A DNA stretch of 64,000 bases from Candidatus Thorarchaeota archaeon (GCA_963726195.1 CAVSBO010000017.1:47331-111330), one strand, 5' to 3'. Positions 8,841 to 17,163 are shown, counted from the stretch's first letter. The notes: generated by a model not told the origin, from the letters alone. Made by a program: numbers and translations.

Positions 8841-10982
8841 ATGAGCACGAAAGTCAAAACACCGCAAATTGACAACAAGCTGATTGCAGGAGCGTTCACG
8901 AAGGCCGCTTCCGATGTTGCCAATGTAGCACGTGGCAAAACCATCGGCGAAGGCAAAGGTCTCTTTGGTGAACCTCGGGAGCTCCTCGTCTTTGAGATGG
9001 CTCGTGCGTCAGGAGTGAAGCAAGACTTGCTGCCGCTCGGAGCCAAGGCACATGAGCGGCTGTTGGCAATCTTTAGGGATAATCTGCCTGACGCAGAGCG
9101 ACCTGGAATTCAAGAGAGTTCGACGCTATGCCTTTATGGACTCGTTCTGAACAACTACGATGAGGAGGACTTCAGGTATCTCTACCGGTACCTCCTCTAC
9201 AACTGGAAGGACCAAGAGCAGTGTGAGAAATGGGCACACAAAGCTCTCGTGTTTCTTGGATTGGTAAAGAACCTGTCAGATAGAGAGCTGTTCCAAGATA
9301 TCGTTGACTGGATGAGGTTTCTCGGCACGCCGTCATGGAACCCGACCGTCTTTGTGAGCGCATGTGCTGAATTCGGCGTTGACATTTCCTCCATCATGTC
9401 GGAGGACGACATGAGGTTCATCGACAGCATCAGGCGTCGCCCTCAGTACCTCGAAGAAGCAGTGACGGGCAAGACCTATCATGAGGCGCGTGTTGCATCC
9501 CGAGACTGGGTTCCAGATAGCATGTCCTCCAAGATGCTTGCTATTTATCAGAAGCGGGCATATGAAGACGCACAACGAAGAATCGCAAAAGACGAGAGCA
9601 TACAACAGTCCTTCGAATCTGTAAGAACGTCATTCGAACAATCCAAGTTTCTCAGCGACGATGGTACACCATTGCCAGTCCGGCTTCAGGAATTGCCTGC
9701 ACCCCCGATGGCGGAAGCAATAGACCCGACTGTGTTTGAGCTCATTCCACAGAAACTGAGAGTCGATCTGCTCTCATCTGTGGCGTATTCCACTCGGACC
9801 AAGAGCATTGAGATTATCTTCATAGGTGGGCCTCGAATAGGACGCAGTGGCATCATCATCAAGACGGACACTGGCGGAGTCCTCCTCGACTTCGGTTTGT
9901 CTGTCGCCAACCAAAAGGTGCCAGAATGGGTGCCCGAGCTGGAAATGATTGACAGTGTCATCATATCACATGCGCACCTCGACCATGTTGGGGGGCTTCC
10001 TATTCTCTACGAACACTATGATGGAAAATGGTGCTCTGCTGGTGTCACCGGTGCAATCAGCATGGCATTGCTCGAAGACGCAATGAGTCTGGGCTCAGGG
10101 GAATTCTCCAGAAAGGACGACAGACACGAGGACATGATGCAGTTCAGTTCGGCGACGAGTTTGACCAAGGTATCAAAGAACCACGTTCGCCTTGAGATTG
10201 GTAAGAGTGCTGAAGTGGGCCCCGGCATCGTCGTCACACCGATTGATGCCTGTCACATCCCGGGGAGCGCAGCCTACCTTCTCGATATCGAGGGGGTAAG
10301 GCTTCTCTACACTGGCGATTTCAATACCGACCAGTCGATCCTGTTTCCGGGCTCAAACCTACCGGTAGACAGTAGGGTGACAATGCTAGACGGAACCTAT
10401 TGGGGTCGCGAGGACTTCAATCGTCCTAAGGTAGCGGAGACCATCACAGATGTCGTGAACAAGCATGGTCCCGTAATTATTCCAAGTTTCGCGGTAGGCC
10501 GCTCCCAAGAAGTGCTTATGATGTTGGAAGCGCTTGGCGTGACTCAAAGAAGAAACGTAATCGTTTCAGGTCTCGCGGAACGTGTGACCAAGCTGGTCGG
10601 GCTTACGGGTCACTGGCAAGCAATGAGAAAGAACAAAACTGTGCTTGAGAAGGAGGACATCTTGGTTGCTGGTGGAGGGATGCTTGGCGGCGGACTCGCT
10701 AGGCAGCACTTCAGAGAACAATGCAACAATCCTGACGCGGCGGTAATATTGTGCGGATACCTCGCCCCGAGGACTCCGGGCTGGAATCTCCTCAAGGGGT
10801 ATGAACCTCACCAATGTAAAGTAGAGTACGCCCGGCTCAGCGCTCACTCCTCGGCAAGCAAACTGGAGAAATATGTCAATTCGTGTACTGGACAAAGGAT
10901 AATGGTGCATACGCCGGCTAAGACAGCTCCTGACGGGGTCACCATACCGGATTACAGAACGAGAGTTGTGATTGCCACCTAG
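8841..10982 (+). CDS. beta-CASP metallo-beta-lactamase ribonuclease with ~320-aa N-terminal domain of unknown function
   Basis: LLDFG, SHAHLDH, HIPGS, YTGDF, DGTY, IPSFAVGRSQE, GGGMLGGG, GYLAPRTPG, LSAH. Confidence 0.85.
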   Translation: MSTKVKTPQIDNKLIAGAFTKAASDVANVARGKTIGEGKGLFGEPRELLVFEMARASGVKQDLLPLGAKAHERLLAIFRDNLPDAERPGIQESSTLCLYGLVLNNYDEEDFRYLYRYLLYNWKDQEQCEKWAHKALVFLGLVKNLSDRELFQDIVDWMRFLGTPSWNPTVFVSACAEFGVDISSIMSEDDMRFIDSIRRRPQYLEEAVTGKTYHEARVASRDWVPDSMSSKMLAIYQKRAYEDAQRRIAKDESIQQSFESVRTSFEQSKFLSDDGTPLPVRLQELPAPPMAEAIDPTVFELIPQKLRVDLLSSVAYSTRTKSIEIIFIGGPRIGRSGIIIKTDTGGVLLDFGLSVANQKVPEWVPELEMIDSVIISHAHLDHVGGLPILYEHYDGKWCSAGVTGAISMALLEDAMSLGSGEFSRKDDRHEDMMQFSSATSLTKVSKNHVRLEIGKSAEVGPGIVVTPIDACHIPGSAAYLLDIEGVRLLYTGDFNTDQSILFPGSNLPVDSRVTMLDGTYWGREDFNRPKVAETITDVVNKHGPVIIPSFAVGRSQEVLMMLEALGVTQRRNVIVSGLAERVTKLVGLTGHWQAMRKNKTVLEKEDILVAGGGMLGGGLARQHFREQCNNPDAAVILCGYLAPRTPGWNLLKGYEPHQCKVEYARLSAHSSASKLEKYVNSCTGQRIMVHTPAKTAPDGVTIPDYRTRVVIAT

Positions 10983-11000: not shown

Positions 11001-12953
11001 TTAAGCAACGACATCCAGCACGCCATCGAGGACTAGCTTGGTTGCTACGTATTTCATTGCTTGTAAACTCACACCTACCCTGTGGACAACGTCCTCCAAG
11101 GTTGAAGTGCCATCGCAAAGGTCGACAAACCTGACCACCACAGCTCCATAGGCTTTCCTGTCATCCTCTCCCACGTCACGCAGCTTTCTCAGAACACTCG
11201 TTGGCCCTATCTCGATCTTGAAGTCCACCCATCCGTATTTCTCCATGATCTGGAGGCACCCAATAACCATGTCCCGGGGGATACCTAGAGCTCTGACGAG
11301 ACCTCCTACCGTTTTTGTACCATCGATAGCGCCCCTAACCTGCACAATCACCTTTCCCAGTTCCCTATTGTTGAAGGGCAGCGGCCGTCCGGATGGTTTT
11401 GAGCGCACAACGTAGTCGAGATTCACCGGCCTTAGCGGGAATGGCGCAAGAAGCTGGAAGACGGAAGTCTCGAATCTCGATATATCTCCGTCCCACTTTG
11501 ACCAAACATCCTCGTAGTCTTGTTCTATGTCATGGAGCGCAGAACTCATGGCAGATCTCTGGGCATCCTCGTCGTTGTTGTTTGTTACGATTATGGCTGC
11601 TACGAAATGAGGAGACTTCTCGACAATCACCAGATTCCCTTCGTGCTCGATGGTTTCGAGTGCGTCAGTCCTTTGAGCATCATCGCTTGGCTCCTTATCT
11701 ATTCCACCAAACGAGTCAAGCGCCGATATGAGAGATACCACAGATGTTGGGTCTATGTCAGGCGTGGTATAACTGATATAGTAGACGATTTGGAAACTCT
11801 CCGCCTGTTGCAGAATGAACAATAGGTGAAGAACTCTGGCAGGCTGCTTTCCCGGTTCGATAATTGCCTCCTCAATTGCGTGTGTAGAGGGGCCTATTTC
11901 GTCACTCTCGTCCCATTCCAGTGACTCAGGATCTCCCTCGGTCGCCACTGTAGGGACTTCTTTCTGCGCGACCTGACCATCCTCTTGGTAAGGCACGTTC
12001 TCGAATCCGGGTCGGGCACGTGGCGCTTTGCCCCCTTTCGGAACCTCTAGCTCTTCCGTCTTGCGCCTGACAGTAATCATCTCGCTGAGAGGCCTATCTG
12101 GCAACTGTATTCCAACGGTCTTTGCTGAAACCTCAAGCATGAAACGAATGAACTCTTCCCTCCGCGTCTTGTCGGTTGCAACCATGGGAAAAGTGGGAGC
12201 ACCGAGCAGACGCTTGATTTTGTCGGCCTTCATCGACTCAGGAAGATCCTGCTTGTTGGCAACGATGAAAATCGGAGTTGAAGAGGCCTCCTTCCTAATA
12301 CTTCGAAGGAGAGTCTTTGTGTTCATCACATTCCTGAAACTCGAATCAGTGACCAAGAATATGACGTCTGTACCTTGGAAGTAGAATCCCCAAAGGTCTT
12401 GGAAGACTGCCTGTCCCGCGAAGTCCCATATTGTTACAAGGAAGGTGCCGAACTGAATGGTCTCAGACGAATCAACGGCCACACTTATCGTGGGAACGTA
12501 GCCGCCGGGTGCGGGTTCCTTCCCGAAGAGCAATCGGAGTAGTGTGCTCTTTCCGACACCACCAGCTCCCACGAAACTCACCTTGAATCTAGTGAATATG
12601 AGCTCTCCAAGTATATCCTCAAGGTTGTCTCGAATATAGCTCATACTGTTCCCACGCAAAGCAGTCGTGATTCTTCCTGCACTCTCTCGGACCTTGTGAT
12701 TGATGACTCTGTCTTCGTCCCTTCCGTCAGTGACGAATATCAGAAGGAGGTTATCACCCACGGGGCTGTGGAACGCCTTGTTCTGCCCAACGTAGATTGG
12801 TGTGTCCGATGAGATCCCTTGAGTGGTCATCAGATCCTTGTAGCCCGCAAGGAACTCTTTGATGTCCGAATCTGTGAATTCTATCCTCCAGAACCGGGTC
12901 CTGACCACAACGCTTCCATCTGTCTTGTCAATGAGAATCACGTTGTGTATCAT
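11001..12953 (-). CDS. Multidomain small GTPase (Arf/Rag-like): longin - GTPase - acidic linker - longin - 2 winged helices
   Basis: G1 GAGGVGKST, G2 VPTI, G3 WDFAGQ, G4 NKQD, G5 MVA. Longin-like N-terminus MIHNVILIDKTDGSVVV. C-terminal IDGTKTV and CDGTSTL wHTH-like repeats. Confidence 0.85.
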   Translation of the reverse strand: MIHNVILIDKTDGSVVVRTRFWRIEFTDSDIKEFLAGYKDLMTTQGISSDTPIYVGQNKAFHSPVGDNLLLIFVTDGRDEDRVINHKVRESAGRITTALRGNSMSYIRDNLEDILGELIFTRFKVSFVGAGGVGKSTLLRLLFGKEPAPGGYVPTISVAVDSSETIQFGTFLVTIWDFAGQAVFQDLWGFYFQGTDVIFLVTDSSFRNVMNTKTLLRSIRKEASSTPIFIVANKQDLPESMKADKIKRLLGAPTFPMVATDKTRREEFIRFMLEVSAKTVGIQLPDRPLSEMITVRRKTEELEVPKGGKAPRARPGFENVPYQEDGQVAQKEVPTVATEGDPESLEWDESDEIGPSTHAIEEAIIEPGKQPARVLHLLFILQQAESFQIVYYISYTTPDIDPTSVVSLISALDSFGGIDKEPSDDAQRTDALETIEHEGNLVIVEKSPHFVAAIIVTNNNDEDAQRSAMSSALHDIEQDYEDVWSKWDGDISRFETSVFQLLAPFPLRPVNLDYVVRSKPSGRPLPFNNRELGKVIVQVRGAIDGTKTVGGLVRALGIPRDMVIGCLQIMEKYGWVDFKIEIGPTSVLRKLRDVGEDDRKAYGAVVVRFVDLCDGTSTLEDVVHRVGVSLQAMKYVATKLVLDGVLDVVA

Positions 12954-13047
12954 TTCGTGGGGCCACCTCTGGCTTTAGTCTCAATGTGGAGTGCTGCAGC
13001 TCATGCTCGTCCTAGGTACCCACAGTAATTCCAGATAAAGAAATCCT

Positions 13048-14766
13048 CTATGGAGGCTTGAGTGCACCTGCGAGGTCAGTATCGAAACCAACAATCCAAC
13101 GCTGATGGAGCTGGGAGAAGACTGTCACTAGCACGTTAGTGGCAATGCCTGTCGCCTTCGCAATATCCTCGATGGAGTGCTTGCCATCGACGAGCCGCAC
13201 TATCTCTTTCAGGTGAGAGAACAGACCGCAGAGATCCTGTTCTGGTTCAGCAAGAAGCAGTGGAACATCCTTTGAGTTTAGGATAGGCTTCGCCTTGATG
13301 GCGCCCATCGCCTTCAGAAGATGCACGGCCCCAAGAACCATTACAGGTCCTCCTTTTCCCACAAGCTGTGACATCGTTTTCTTACCGTCGAGACTGTCCC
13401 AGACCGCGTTCAGGAAGTCTCGAACTGAAGGATCTCGAAACCTATCCCAGTTTGGCTCTTCCACTTTGTATGGAGCCATACGCGACCCCAAGTGCTCCGG
13501 CGGAAGAGTGGCCAAGAGCTTAATCGTGAATGCAGGTGCCTCATATTGATCGTTTGGATTGACGCCTTGGTCAGGTGCCTCATCAAAGTAAAGGTCAGGA
13601 AGAAAGGAAAAGCGAGAACGAATGGACTCCACATCTTCCTTGTCTCCTGTTATTAGAGTGAAAATCAGATTCTCTCTCTCTATAATGGCATACTTGAGAT
13701 CACCGGTTTGAAAGACCGAGGTTCGATTTGGGCTAGCTGGGTCAAGATGAAACATCGAAATAGCAGCCACCACGTTTGGTGCACGTTCAAGCACTTTCGA
13801 GCTGGGCTCGTAGTAATAAGTGAACACTGGCGTACCAGTCTCTTTGTCAATCACAAAGAAAGCCTGATGACCCAATGCCTTCGCTTTTGGTAAGATGCGA
13901 CTGGGACTCCAGTCAATGCTTTCATCAACAAGCCAGGTACTAAATGCAACATCAGGCTCTACGGTTATCACTCCGCACACTTGCAGCAGTGAGAGCAGAA
14001 GACGAGAGGGCTTGTCCGGCGGGCAACTGCACATCCTTGCATCAAACTGAGTCTGAAACTGCCGCACCAACTCAAGCTGATCCTGTGAACCGGGCACCAG
14101 GGCAACAGGGACGGAGGAATTCCTCTTGATGCGTTCGAGGAGCCTTCCAAGCGATTCCTTTGATGGAAGCGGCGGGCCAACGATTATGGCCATCCCATCT
14201 ATCTCTTTGAGGTCTGTCGACCAGTTGGCAGCAGGAACTTCCCTTTCGTCAATACGCTTCACTTTCACGACAAATGGACCTATTGAAACAGGGCGCAGGA
14301 AACGGTCCGGCAAGGCTAACCGCTGAATCAGGTTGGCCACAGTCATGGCCAACTTGTTCCCGGGCTGGGGGTTTTCCGGGCCGACAAAGCATATTGAAAC
14401 GTTCTTCCTAAGGCAGGCATCCACGAGCTTGGGAAAGGAGCCTCGAGCCTCTCTCCCGGAGCTCTCGGTGACTCTTCTTCTAAACGCCGCCTCAAGCATT
14501 CTAACCTTGCCTAGGTCATCGGCCGTAACAGTCGGTAAGTCGCTCACTCCAATCAGAATAGCGTTCTCACCTGTCGGACAGAATGTTACGCCTCGATCGC
14601 CGAACGAGAACGAGCTGAATCCGATCACAGACTCTGACTGCACCAACTCATAGTACCTGTCGACCACGGCCTTAATCAGCTCCTGGTCTGTTTCTGCACG
14701 GAGAAACGAACCAGATGCAACAACCCTTGAAGCTTGAAGGTCGTAGAGATAGGCTGCTGCTATCAA
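13048..14766 (-). CDS. Paralog of the adjacent gene: longin - degenerate (pseudo)GTPase - longin - 2 winged helices
   Basis: Collinear similarity to 11001..12953 (VSICFVG, IGPFVVKV, SSVPVALV, FFVIDKETGTPVF, LDGKKTM, VDGKHSI) but no GxxxxGK, DxxG or NKxD. Confidence 0.7.
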   Translation of the reverse strand: MIAAAYLYDLQASRVVASGSFLRAETDQELIKAVVDRYYELVQSESVIGFSSFSFGDRGVTFCPTGENAILIGVSDLPTVTADDLGKVRMLEAAFRRRVTESSGREARGSFPKLVDACLRKNVSICFVGPENPQPGNKLAMTVANLIQRLALPDRFLRPVSIGPFVVKVKRIDEREVPAANWSTDLKEIDGMAIIVGPPLPSKESLGRLLERIKRNSSVPVALVPGSQDQLELVRQFQTQFDARMCSCPPDKPSRLLLSLLQVCGVITVEPDVAFSTWLVDESIDWSPSRILPKAKALGHQAFFVIDKETGTPVFTYYYEPSSKVLERAPNVVAAISMFHLDPASPNRTSVFQTGDLKYAIIERENLIFTLITGDKEDVESIRSRFSFLPDLYFDEAPDQGVNPNDQYEAPAFTIKLLATLPPEHLGSRMAPYKVEEPNWDRFRDPSVRDFLNAVWDSLDGKKTMSQLVGKGGPVMVLGAVHLLKAMGAIKAKPILNSKDVPLLLAEPEQDLCGLFSHLKEIVRLVDGKHSIEDIAKATGIATNVLVTVFSQLHQRWIVGFDTDLAGALKPP

Positions 14767-14906: not shown

Positions 14907-17163
14907 CTACGTCTCTCGAAGATAGTTCAGCACATCTCGAATCTGCTCTGGTTCAGCATGCCGCTCAGCAAGCACAGCCCGAGCATCCCCGACCCCTAGT
15001 TGGTACAGAGCGAATACCATTGACTCAATACGGCTCGAGTAGTTCAGGCCTTCTTTGAGCACGAGTCTTACCTCACTAATCAAATCACGAGCTGTTTCCT
15101 CGTGAACGCTCGACGAGCCAACAGGATCCGGGATAGGGAGAGATGCAAGTTCCCTGTTCGACACGTGATTGTTTGCGTTGCTGAGATTGAATCTCCAGTT
15201 TATCAAGTCTGAGTTCAGCACCCCGAGAAGGTAGAACAGATAGTCCCGATTCACGCGTCCCTTCAGAGAAATGTAGTTGCAGGAATTGGCCAAGATGGTC
15301 TCAGCCGGAACGAAGGCGAACTTCAGGCGCCATCGTTGTGCCCGGTTCGAGACCTGTTGGCACACGATGCGGGGCTTGTGCATGTGAGGAAGACGTTCAG
15401 AGGAATTGGACGATTTCATGAATTGATTAAGGTCCACAGACTCTGCCTTGGCCTTCTTCCTTGACCTCATTCTGTATCTCGTGATTTGAGATCCTCTGAC
15501 AAGCTCGGACCCGGAGATGTCTAGTCGGATGCTGCCTTTGTTGAGTGTCAAGTCAAGTTCGCCGCGTCGACATACCAGCCAACCGATTTTACCCAGCGGC
15601 GGGTTAGCATGCATCTTGTGCAGAACTCTCCAGCCTCTTGCATTAGCCCGGGGTATTGCGAGCGAATCTCCCATGGTGTCTCGGATTGCATCCACTGGTA
15701 TCTTGAGCGAATCCGTGTTCTCGGTCTCTTCGATGCCTGTCAGTCCAAAACACGCTTCCAAACTTCGGCTTTTCACACCCTTATCAACGACTGCAATACA
15801 GACCGACTGCGTGACCCCCGGGAACAACTTCGCATCCTCAGGGAATTCGTAGATTGCCCGTACACTGTGCTCGGTCATCAGTGTGCGACGCAGAGGTGCG
15901 GCCGACATGTCAGCCAAAAGAGTGGAGGGCACAATGAATCCCACCTGACCTCGCTTCTGAGTCAGCCTCACGGCGCGTTCAATAAACAACCTGTAACTGT
16001 CGATACTGTTTTGGCCACTGAGGCCGAAATCGCCGCACTCTCTGAAGTAAGCAACATCCTCAGCCATACGAGCCCTATAGTCGGCGTATTCGGCGGGCGG
16101 AATCGTACCATCAGAATAGGCAACGTGCTCTCGAAGAAACTCGCTGACATTGGGTTTCAGCCGGTTGTAGGGTGGGTTCATGACTACGAAATCAAAACCG
16201 CCTGAGTCACGCACGATCTCGGGAAACTCATCCAACCATTCGAAGGGATGCCTGGACCGAGGGTCTGCAAAGAAATGAGAGTTGTCTGATTTGCCATCCA
16301 ATCCCTTCAGCGAAATGAGCGAATTGCCTTGCTTGAGATCAGAACCTAGAGACCTAGTCGACGAAATCAATGCATTCGAATGGAGCACCAAGGAAATCGA
16401 AGCATCGGCGACCTCGAGGGAAGCACGATCTAGGTCAACGCCGTACAGATTCTGCCTGAAACACTCTGACAAGGATTGCTGATTGGGACCAAGCACCGAG
16501 AGGCAACTAAGCCCTATATCAGCACAGGCGCGAGCTATTCGCGTCTCTCTCGCCTTGAAAGCGAGCATCGCTGCGACCAAGAAAGCACCGGACCCACACG
16601 CAGGGTCAAGCAATCTTAGTGACATTAGATGGCGGAGGGCTTCGTCCCGCTCCTCAGGGATTCTTCGAATGATCTGGTCTAGGACGTTGCCCAGAGTCTT
16701 CTCGACAATGAAGCTGGAAACTGCTGTCGGCGTATAGAATACTCCGAGAGGCCTTCGTGTTACAATTCCTTTTGGCGAAGCGACGAGTCCGTGAGAACCT
16801 ATCAGATGAATATCTGCCAACAGGTCGGGCAGGTCAGTAATCGCCAGATGACTGAAATCGTACGACCAATCCAAGTTCAAGGTCCGCTCAAGACAAGACT
16901 TGGCAATATCAAGTACTTCCGGTTTTGATATTCCCATGCTCTCTGCAGCATACGAAAGCTCGGAGAAAGGAATCTCGCTTTGGTTGATAACCTCTTGAAC
17001 ATGAATCCGCGAGCCGGCAGCTGAGAGCCCATGTCAATGAGGCGACTCTTGCGGCCTCTGCTGCTTTCTTGAGATGCTCATGGCCGTGCTGGACTTCGTC
17101 TGTGGCTAAAGTGAAAAACCGATTGACAATTGATGCAGCAATTTCCTCTGCAGAAAGCGGCAA
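14907..17163 (-). CDS. N6-adenine DNA methyltransferase (TaqI/Eco57I-like, with C-terminal target-recognition domain); probable +1 frameshift near 17010
   Basis: GVFYTP, LLDPACGSGAF, YGVDLD, GNSL, FDFVVMNPPY, LLGVLNS. ORF 16909..17163 probably supplies the N-terminus of ORF 14907..16937. Confidence 0.88.

Follow-up and report, generated by a model that had tools for sequence, protein, structure and literature searches.

A gene pair in a Thorarchaeota genome

The DNA analyzed here, hereafter the window, is a stretch of 64,000 nucleotides from the genome of a Candidatus Thorarchaeota archaeon, a member of the Asgard archaea (GCA_963726195.1; contig C17, CAVSBO010000017.1, positions 47331-111330). 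The genome comprises 2.92 Mb on 19 contigs and is 88.9% complete. Positions 11,001 to 14,766 of the window contain two adjacent genes, denoted A and B, whose closest homologues come mostly from sources labeled Candidatus Thorarchaeota. An initial annotation, made from the sequence of the window, described two co-oriented genes 94 bp apart with products of the same layout, one an active GTPase and the other its dead paralogue. Both open reading frames (ORFs) and the spacer are present as described, on the minus strand:

11001..12953, minus strand: gene A, ORF of 650 aa, ATG start codon, GAGGTGG just 5' of it
12954..13047, minus strand: spacer between B and A, 94 nt, with GAGGTGG directly before the ATG of A
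13048..14766, minus strand: gene B, ORF of 572 aa, TTG start codon, GGAGG 5' of the start

Here we show that B lies directly upstream of A in most of the genomes that encode B, and that the two products are, by profile alignment, full-length paralogues of the build longin-G-longin-winged helix-winged helix, in which the nucleotide-binding motifs are intact in A and lost in B. Among 27 loci, the spacer between the two genes ranges from 76 to 178 nt and contains a run of at least five T in two (25/27 lack such a run). This spacer fits co-transcription of A and B, which we infer from the sequence.

The GTPase domain of protein A

All sequence words that the initial annotation quoted for motifs G1 to G5 were located in A, namely, GAGGVGKST (aa 129-137), P154-T155, WDFAGQ (aa 176-181) and NKQD (aa 233-236). 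The G1 (GxxxxGK[ST]), G3 and G4 ([NT]KxD) motifs are conserved in 32/32 A orthologues, and the G3 motif of A, WDFAGQ, includes a glutamine of the catalytic type. The best Pfam match is Arf (67.1 bits, cut-off 22.3; aa 121-252), followed by Roc (64.1 bits) and Ras (52.1 bits), and TIGR00231 also scores above its cut-off (66.9 against 42.5 bits), whereas Gtr1_RagA reaches only 21.0 bits, with a cut-off of 22. Among the matches listed, many but not all A orthologues are annotated with PF04670. The best solved relatives found in a profile search of the PDB are Arf1 proteins (E 7e-15 to about 1e-14). The motifs and the profile matches above cut-off place A among the small GTPases of the Ras superfamily.

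The mean pairwise identity within the A family is 0.93 in the G domain, 0.64 in the second longin domain and 0.30 in the linker between them (the conservation values given here for A and below for B come from two alignments that sample different sets). Taken with the motifs, these values indicate that A most likely functions as an Arf/Rag-like small GTPase and is very strongly constrained. The domains of A outside the G domain were assigned through B because they are homologous, by hhalign and BLASTP, to those of the modeled B protein:

12600..12953, minus strand: first longin domain of A, aa 1-118; homology to B, with the hhalign alignment collinear from residue 1, and BLASTP
12069..12599, minus strand: Arf/Rag-like G domain of A, intact, aa 119-295; Pfam, TIGR00231, PDB profile search and motifs
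11844..12068, minus strand: linker of A, aa 296-370, acidic and poorly conserved; missing from B, a gap in the hhalign alignment
11430..11843, minus strand: second longin domain of A, aa 371-508; homology, hhalign columns pair with B aa 296-425
11004..11429, minus strand: two winged-helix units of A, aa 509-650; BLASTP to the B tail, weak Pfam matches to HTH_47 and TrmB

The linker carries a net charge of -9. The first winged helix (wH1) has a predicted isoelectric point (pI) of 10.0, and the second (wH2) of 4.75. In strand 2 of the first longin domain, residue R20 is invariant in 32 sequences and is only a candidate for an arginine finger.

Predicted structure of protein B

An AlphaFold2 model of full-length B, built from a 45-sequence alignment, has a mean pLDDT of 84 and a pTM of 0.51, and all five parts are ordered:

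14407..14766, minus strand: first longin domain of B, aa 1-120; AlphaFold2 model, VIA Z 11-12.8
13882..14406, minus strand: pseudo-G domain of B, aa 121-295; G-like fold without nucleotide motifs, hhalign to A, VIA
13492..13881, minus strand: second longin domain of B, aa 296-425; VIA on aa 299-425
13051..13491, minus strand: two winged-helix units of B, aa 426-572; DSSP, Pfam, each unit starting with xDGxxT/S

Structural comparison with VIA matched aa 1-120 of the model to COPI 9qpq_L (Z 12.8, root-mean-square deviation (rmsd) 2.7, 112 aa), 5mu7_B (Z 12.2), the longin domain of VAMP7 (4afi_A, Z 11.8) and sedlin (2j3w_C, Z 11.5), with COPI represented by delta/zeta; the roadblock domains of LAMTOR and MglB score near Z 10, about 1-2 Z below the longins. 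The best matches of aa 299-425 are the N-terminal domain of Sec22b (1ifq_A, Z 10.9, 117 aa, rmsd 3.4) and SEDL (1h3q, Z 10.3). Thus, in the model of B, the domains flanking the middle one both have longin folds, as had been proposed. On the second of them, Pfam Fuz_longin_1 is detected below the cut-off (E 2.7e-4), in 10/29 members.

For the middle domain (aa 117-289), a wide VIA search, which is independent of Foldseek, retrieved Rab28 (3e5h, Z 9.4, 145 aa, rmsd 3.5), Rab23 (Z 9.4), Ran (Z 9.3, 155 aa), RhoA (9.3), RHEB (9.2) and DiRas1 (9.0). The G-domain fold proposed for the middle of B therefore agrees with the model (Z 9.0-9.4 to small GTPases), with the qualification that receiver domains tie with the GTPases. 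The order of secondary structure elements assigned by DSSP, strand-helix-strand-strand-helix-strand-helix-strand-helix-helix, can be read as that of small GTPases. The fold by itself would be insufficient, but because it is accompanied by a profile match to the A family (see below), the domain reads as a degenerate G domain.

In the full-length model, the tail of B consists of a helix-helix-helix-strand unit that occurs twice. Pfam searches with 29 C-terminal modules detected HTH_47 in 16/29 and Rrf2 in 9/29, with a best E of 1.5e-6 for MarR_2, which supports the interpretation of the tail as two winged helix-turn-helix units; DUF742, a winged-helix protein of conservons, gave recurring but weak matches only (E 0.003-0.24). 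The two xDGxxT/S repeats per protein that had been pointed out in the initial annotation are AIDGTKT and LCDGTST in A, and SLDGKKT and LVDGKHS in B. As in A, wH1 of B is predicted to be basic (pI 9.7) and wH2 acidic (pI 5.4). The proposed five-part layout is accordingly found in the model of B and is matched in A by homology.

When the whole B model was compared to known structures with Foldseek, the top group, with E from 1.2e-6 to 1e-4, consisted of SEA/GATOR1, Rag/Gtr and LokiRagO entries, which are identified here by entry title rather than by subunit name. The first match is to a SEA complex (8adl_S, E 1.2e-6), then to SEAC wing-EGOC (9h4q_T), RagA/RagC (6s6a_A, E 3e-6), Gtr1-Gtr2 (4arz_B, E 3.2e-6) and LokiRagO, a RagA-like GTPase of Lokiarchaeota (8yl2_B, E 1.3e-5); GATOR1 (6ces, 8fw5, 9o5a_H, 7t3a_C), CPLANE Fuzzy and Mon1-Ccz1 are also matched. 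For these whole-chain matches the TM-scores are low, 0.14-0.21 per query and 0.18-0.32 per target, and the rmsd is high. The Rag/Gtr chains align over 313-329 columns with TM-scores of 0.28-0.31 per target, and the SEA/GATOR1 chains (E 1.2e-6 to 5e-5) have TM-scores of 0.21-0.27 per target and rmsd of 10-16 A. Because the TM-scores are low and the rmsd high, the likeness of the B model to these chains is one of domain content and order, not of rigid arrangement. In the ESM Atlas, B matches its own cluster at 0.97, and the next cluster is an archaeal one of the Gtr1/RagA type at 0.81, which is taken as a lead only.

Loss of nucleotide-binding motifs in the B family

The loss of nucleotide-binding motifs noted for the 572-aa protein extends to the entire family: the P-loop (GxxxxGK[ST]) is present in 0/45 B family sequences, and [NT]KxD in 1/45. 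At the positions of the lost motifs, the B consensus has conserved words of its own, ICF.T, P..ED.SG.AV, GPF.V.V and VVPGSD..LE.AR. Conservation within B is highest in the second longin domain, with a mean pairwise identity of 0.60 compared to 0.32-0.37 in the N-terminal half. By predicted fold and motif loss, B is a pseudo-GTPase. It is evidently under selection, being full-length and single-copy in 33/36 other genomes of its family, with a confidently predicted fold and a conserved second longin domain.

Paralogy of A and B

BLASTP detects two regions of similarity between A and B: aa 1-236 of A align with aa 1-229 of B at 20% identity (E 4e-5), and aa 542-640 of A with aa 458-553 of B at 25% identity (E 2e-4). 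When 45 B-family and 32 A-family sequences were compared as profiles with hhalign, a collinear alignment of 556 columns was obtained (probability 98.4%, E 6.7e-15), and its sole large gap corresponds to the 75-residue linker of A. The strand-by-strand matches quoted in the initial annotation recur in the BLASTP alignments, and the collinear layout is that of the profile alignment. This likeness is far above chance. When the middle domain of B was aligned separately with the G domain of the A family, 73 columns were matched (probability 84.7%, E 6.7e-6), running from the interswitch strands to the NKxD strand.

Distribution and linkage of the two genes

Gene B was found in 33/36 other genomes of the same family, always once and nearly always as a full-length ORF, and in none of 24 genomes from 17 other families of the phylum (E <= 1e-5). 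The idea of a pair spread across Asgard archaea thus did not hold up; among the genomes searched, B is restricted to one family of Thorarchaeota. A search of 1.84 billion representative sequences with the B profile yielded 48 clusters at E <= 1e-3, most of which are full-length or partial B look-alikes; the distant matches among them comprise one A orthologue together with an A-type protein of 626 aa and a stand-alone protein of 273 aa. Full-length A orthologues occur in the same family (57-72% identity) and in one genome of a sister family (G037, 47%).

Linkage was counted in the 34 genomes with B, the window's own included. In 29/34, A follows B directly in the same orientation, the ends of the two matches being 94-187 nt apart, and the gene order B-A is kept across 16 genera, so that the expected conservation of adjacency in relatives was borne out. 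Two genomes of one genus (G020 and G029) have a 1.85-kb insert of one gene between B and A, and in two more (G018 and G025) the locus is cut by contig ends. Both genes are absent from two genomes of the window's own genus (G001 and G002, 85% and 93% complete).

The insert in G020 (L041:2826-4412), the one of the two that was read, carries a 528-aa ORF on the opposite strand without a Pfam match, and relatives of this ORF are encoded on contig C3 of the window's genome.

Neighboring genes

Beyond the 3' end of A and convergent to it, the window carries a gene for a 713-aa beta-CASP metallo-beta-lactamase (8841-10982, plus strand), the N-terminal ~330 aa of which correspond to no known family. 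A beta-CASP gene is located directly beyond A in G037, G020 and G016, the three loci (3/3) in which the DNA there is covered; in G035 it is ~2.5 kb away from A, with other ORFs in between. Just upstream of B, on the same strand, is a gene for an N6 DNA methyltransferase of the Eco57I/type II-IIG-like kind with a TaqI-like specificity domain (14907-16937, minus strand). In the sister-family genome G037, the place of B upstream of the A orthologue is taken by a gene for a CUB-PPC-caspase (Peptidase_C14) protein (L039:2838-4340).

Relatives of the modules in the same genome

The genome of the window encodes 24 matches to A at E <= 1e-3. Short longin-GTPase proteins of ~295 aa are found both in this genome and in other Asgard families. 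Paralogues of A of ~600 aa (36-41% identity over aa 1-300) were considered as further copies and rejected: in the five ORFs that were read, they end in acidic low-complexity tails, and no longin or winged-helix tail is apparent. In one paralogue (L002:1486-2889, on contig C7), which shares 40% identity with A over aa 1-340, a longin domain and an Arf-like G domain precede a long, highly charged low-complexity tail; proteins of the same type in the other genomes read are 398-611 aa long.

The combination of a longin domain with two winged helices also exists as a stand-alone protein of 276 aa (L004:1495-2325), and a further form, of 212 aa, has one winged helix. HTH_47 (32.3 bits) and TrmB (26.9 bits) score above cut-off in the stand-alone relatives P0275 and P0272. 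For the 276-aa family, 289 homologues were detected at E <= 1e-3; among the 120 matches listed, all are named 'hypothetical protein' and nearly all are from Thorarchaeota. This stand-alone family of longin plus two winged helices (275 aa) is probably the NPRL2-like family of Liu et al. (10.1101/2020.10.19.343400).

The gene for the 276-aa protein belongs to a one-strand cluster (L004, contig C4, 270098-273757) with a second copy in which the longin domain (169 aa) and the two winged helices (112 aa) are encoded by separate ORFs with a 4-nt overlap. Nearby, on the other strand, is a gene of the Roadblock/LC7 family (Pfam Robl_LC7, E 5.4e-12).

In a quick tree of the C-terminal module, A and B each form one group.

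Comparison with known systems

The A-B pair appears to resemble the Rag/Gtr heterodimers (RagA/B-RagC/D and Gtr1-Gtr2) and the Asgard Rag-like proteins (LokiRagO, 8yl2; strain MK-D1) in that a G or pseudo-G domain is followed by a domain of the roadblock/longin type and that two paralogues are encoded side by side. In MK-D1, GTPase domains fused to a longin domain, to a roadblock domain or placed between both are described, as is an operonic Rag-like pair predicted to heterodimerize via the roadblock domains; for other Rag-like architectures, homodimers were modeled (Tran et al. 2024, PMC10933270). Fusions of Rag-family GTPases to longin domains are likewise on record (Liu et al., 10.1101/2020.10.19.343400), and a longin domain at the N-terminus is described for some of the Arf-like proteins of Asgard archaea (Zhu et al. 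2025, PMC11914678). Both Rag partners bind nucleotide, whereas B has no canonical nucleotide site, so that this feature does not apply to the pair; A and B carry an additional N-terminal longin domain and two C-terminal winged helices; and the G domain of A is by sequence nearer to Arf (67 bits) than to Gtr1_RagA.

The likeness to NPRL2-NPRL3 (Npr2-Npr3, the core of GATOR1/SEACIT) is that of paralogous proteins each with a longin domain followed by winged helices. NPRL2/3 consist of a longin domain and two or more winged helices, which have been considered possible binders of DNA, RNA or protein, the partner being unsettled (Levine 2013, PMC3747258), and an NPRL2-like family, with a longin and the NPRL2 C-terminal domain, is reported from most Thor metagenome-assembled genomes (MAGs) (Liu et al., 10.1101/2020.10.19.343400). 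The same order, a longin domain and then two winged helices, is seen in B aa 296-572 (Z 10.9; HTH_47 in 16/29). Unlike A and B, NPRL2/3 themselves have no G or pseudo-G domain, and no DEPDC5 partner is known for the pair, although no search aimed at one was made. Neither A nor B, nor any stand-alone paralogue or any of the 29 modules from the C-terminus, gave a match to Pfam NPR2 or NPR3 at E <= 1. The GP motif, a mark of longins of the GTPase-activating protein (GAP) type that stands beside the arginine finger, is known in some Asgard longins (PMC12290439); in sequences and consensus lines, it is absent before strand 2 in all four longin domains of the window, where B has the loop sequences LQASR and KETGTP, and A has KTDGS and QQAESFQ. 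The description of the pair as Rag/GATOR1-like was therefore retained in part: Foldseek ranks SEA/GATOR1 and Rag/Gtr first, but because there is no NPR2/NPR3 match and no GP motif, the pair appears Rag/NPRL2-like in build and not a demonstrated member of these systems.

Longin/roadblock platforms, namely, MglB-MglA, SRX-SRbeta, Mon1-Ccz1 and Fuzzy-Inturned, also place a longin or roadblock domain beside a small GTPase. In VIA comparisons, the B model matches Fuzzy (7q3d_C, Z 11.9, aa 1-397), MglB (Z 10.1-10.2), Mon1 (9lol_A, Z 9.6) and SR-alpha (6frk_y, Z 9.5, aa 2-246). The domain arrangement of B differs from that of these platforms, given an rmsd of ~19-21 A, and the platforms are separate chains or have no G domain in the same chain.

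PseudoGTPases are exemplified by the eukaryotic CENP-M and the pG domains of p190RhoGAP; AAGAB came up in the VIA comparison solely via its partner chain. B resembles this class in having a G-like fold without G1 or G4 that is kept under selection, as structural partners are in that class. Beyond general reviews, the literature search found no paper on an archaeal or Asgard pseudoGTPase.

A putative one-site switch and its alternatives

The initial annotation proposed an obligate heterodimer in which B would serve A as scaffold, GEF or GAP. The reading that we favor, with some reservation, is a switch with a single nucleotide site. A and B would be made together from one transcription unit and would pair, by contacts of like with like, into an asymmetric complex in which B is the structural, nucleotide-free half. 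The pairing surface could be formed by the two second longin domains, as in the Rag/Gtr and NPRL2/3 dimers, by the G domain of A and the pseudo-G domain of B, or by both, and the GTP/GDP state of A would then change what the longin platforms and winged-helix tails expose to some target. This reading is consistent with the nearly equal conservation of the second longin domain in A and B (0.64 and 0.60), while the N-terminal half of B drifts, with the linkage in 29/34 genomes, with the spacers free of T5 runs and with the joint absence of the two genes from G001 and G002. Precedents are the operonic MK-D1 pair predicted to heterodimerize (Tran et al. 2024, PMC10933270) and the SEA/GATOR1, Rag/Gtr and LokiRagO chains at the top of the Foldseek ranking.

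Several observations weigh against it. In one of the 34 genomes (G016), A and B are on different contigs with other genes beside each. A occurs without B in G035 (88% complete), where the upstream ORF is unrelated, and in G037, with an unrelated gene upstream; because these two genomes carry A alone, A can apparently work without B, and there is no strict need for the pair. B also evolves much faster than A: compared with the proteins of the window, B is 32-51% identical and A 57-72% in the same genomes. The G-domain ancestry of the middle of B has weak points as well. CheY-type receivers reach the same Z as the GTPases (9.4), over ~117 aligned aa. When compared with 11 further small GTPases encoded in the genome, the domain aligns in register but with E 0.039 and a probability of 1.3%. 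In searches of PDB sequences, the sole GTPase retrieved with the full-length B profile is SAR1 (E 0.54), and the middle-domain profile retrieves no GTPase, with a designed Rossmann 2x2 protein at E 0.004. Among G domains, it is therefore the A family and no other that ties B in by sequence. Finally, in the tree of the C-terminal module, the stand-alone family groups with A and not with B (SH-aLRT 95), and B is on a long branch. The position of B relative to the stand-alone family in this quick tree is unsafe, as would be any order of fusion and duplication read from it.

The occurrence of A without B and the rapid evolution of B would also suit a pair of neighbors that are not partners, with A acting alone or as a homodimer, as it has to in genomes that lack B, of the kind modeled by Tran et al. 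(2024, PMC10933270) for other Rag-like architectures, and B an independent scaffold or regulator, for example, a platform for other GTPases, for which the 24 A matches in the same genome would provide many possible clients. The gene order kept in 29/34 genomes and 16 genera, the joint absence from G001 and G002 and the similarly conserved second longins argue in the other direction, and we consider this explanation unlikely. A different output is conceivable whether or not A and B associate, and is compatible with the one-site switch: the tandem winged helices, with a basic wH1, would bind DNA or RNA under control of the nucleotide state of A. The basic wH1 of both proteins, the Pfam matches to DNA-binding winged-HTH families (MarR_2, Rrf2 and TrmB) and the beta-CASP nuclease gene that is kept beside A in 3/3 loci, and ~2.5 kb further in a fourth, are in line with such a GTP-gated regulator of nucleic acids. 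However, wH2 is acidic, the best structural neighbors of B are protein-protein assemblies, and the winged helices of NPRL2/3 may bind DNA, RNA or protein (PMC3747258). We consider a GTP-gated regulator of this kind unlikely.

The Foldseek ranking raises the question of a true proto-GATOR1/Rag module, in which the longin domains would themselves be the GAP of the G domain of A and supply an arginine finger, like NPRL2 or FLCN, either in cis or from B in trans. The best matches are SEA/GATOR1 entries (8adl_S, 9h4q_T, 9o5a_H and 7t3a_C), the invariant R20 of A is a candidate arginine, the longin with two winged helices is the NPRL2/3 build (Levine 2013, PMC3747258), and the NPRL2-like family is reported from most Thor MAGs (Liu et al., 10.1101/2020.10.19.343400); yet the TM-scores of 0.15-0.31 are low, and the missing NPR2/NPR3 match and GP motif speak against a GAP of this type. 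We consider such a module very unlikely. As for B being a decaying pseudogene, or the pair being part of a defense island, the loss of all nucleotide motifs and the methyltransferase gene just upstream might suggest as much, but nearly all of the 33 other genomes have B as a complete ORF, and its predicted fold is confident. The methyltransferase adjoins B in only 3/30 loci with an upstream flank (the window's own, G027 and G016), and neither A nor B matches PADLOC at E <= 0.01. Both ideas are extremely unlikely.

A bolder version of the one-site switch can be formulated, in which the pair is a living stage that preceded the Rag/GATOR1 nutrient switch of eukaryotes. One polypeptide would combine a Rag/Arf-like GTPase with an NPRL2-like regulator (longin and winged helices), and its duplication would have given rise to an active and a dead copy, which form an obligate heterodimer with one site. 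If true, Rag dimers and NPRL2/3 dimers would have become separate in eukaryotes at a later time, when such a module was split. We regard this scenario as speculative and decidedly unlikely.

Significance of the gene pair

The initial annotation knew of no description of this exact arrangement, and this stands in part. The literature search found no dead twin and no five-domain pair, with the limit that figure 5c and the supplements of Liu et al., which may show this fusion, were outside the search. The building blocks are already published: fusions of longin and GTPase domains, a Rag-like pair in an Asgard operon and Thor proteins that resemble NPRL2 (PMC10933270; 10.1101/2020.10.19.343400).

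The reach of the finding is limited to a twin found in a single Thorarchaeota family and to a pair known here from its sequence and a model of B. Within this reach, it bears on a general difficulty. Asgard archaea encode dozens of small GTPases and longin/roadblock proteins. The respective genes are rarely in operons, which makes it hard to match regulators with GTPases (Tran et al. 2024, PMC10933270). The locus described here is a defined, conserved two-gene pair that can be expressed and tested. It would provide an archaeal example of a pseudo-GTPase that is retained beside its active twin, with a single chain uniting components that in eukaryotes are divided between the Rag GTPases and NPRL2/NPRL3.

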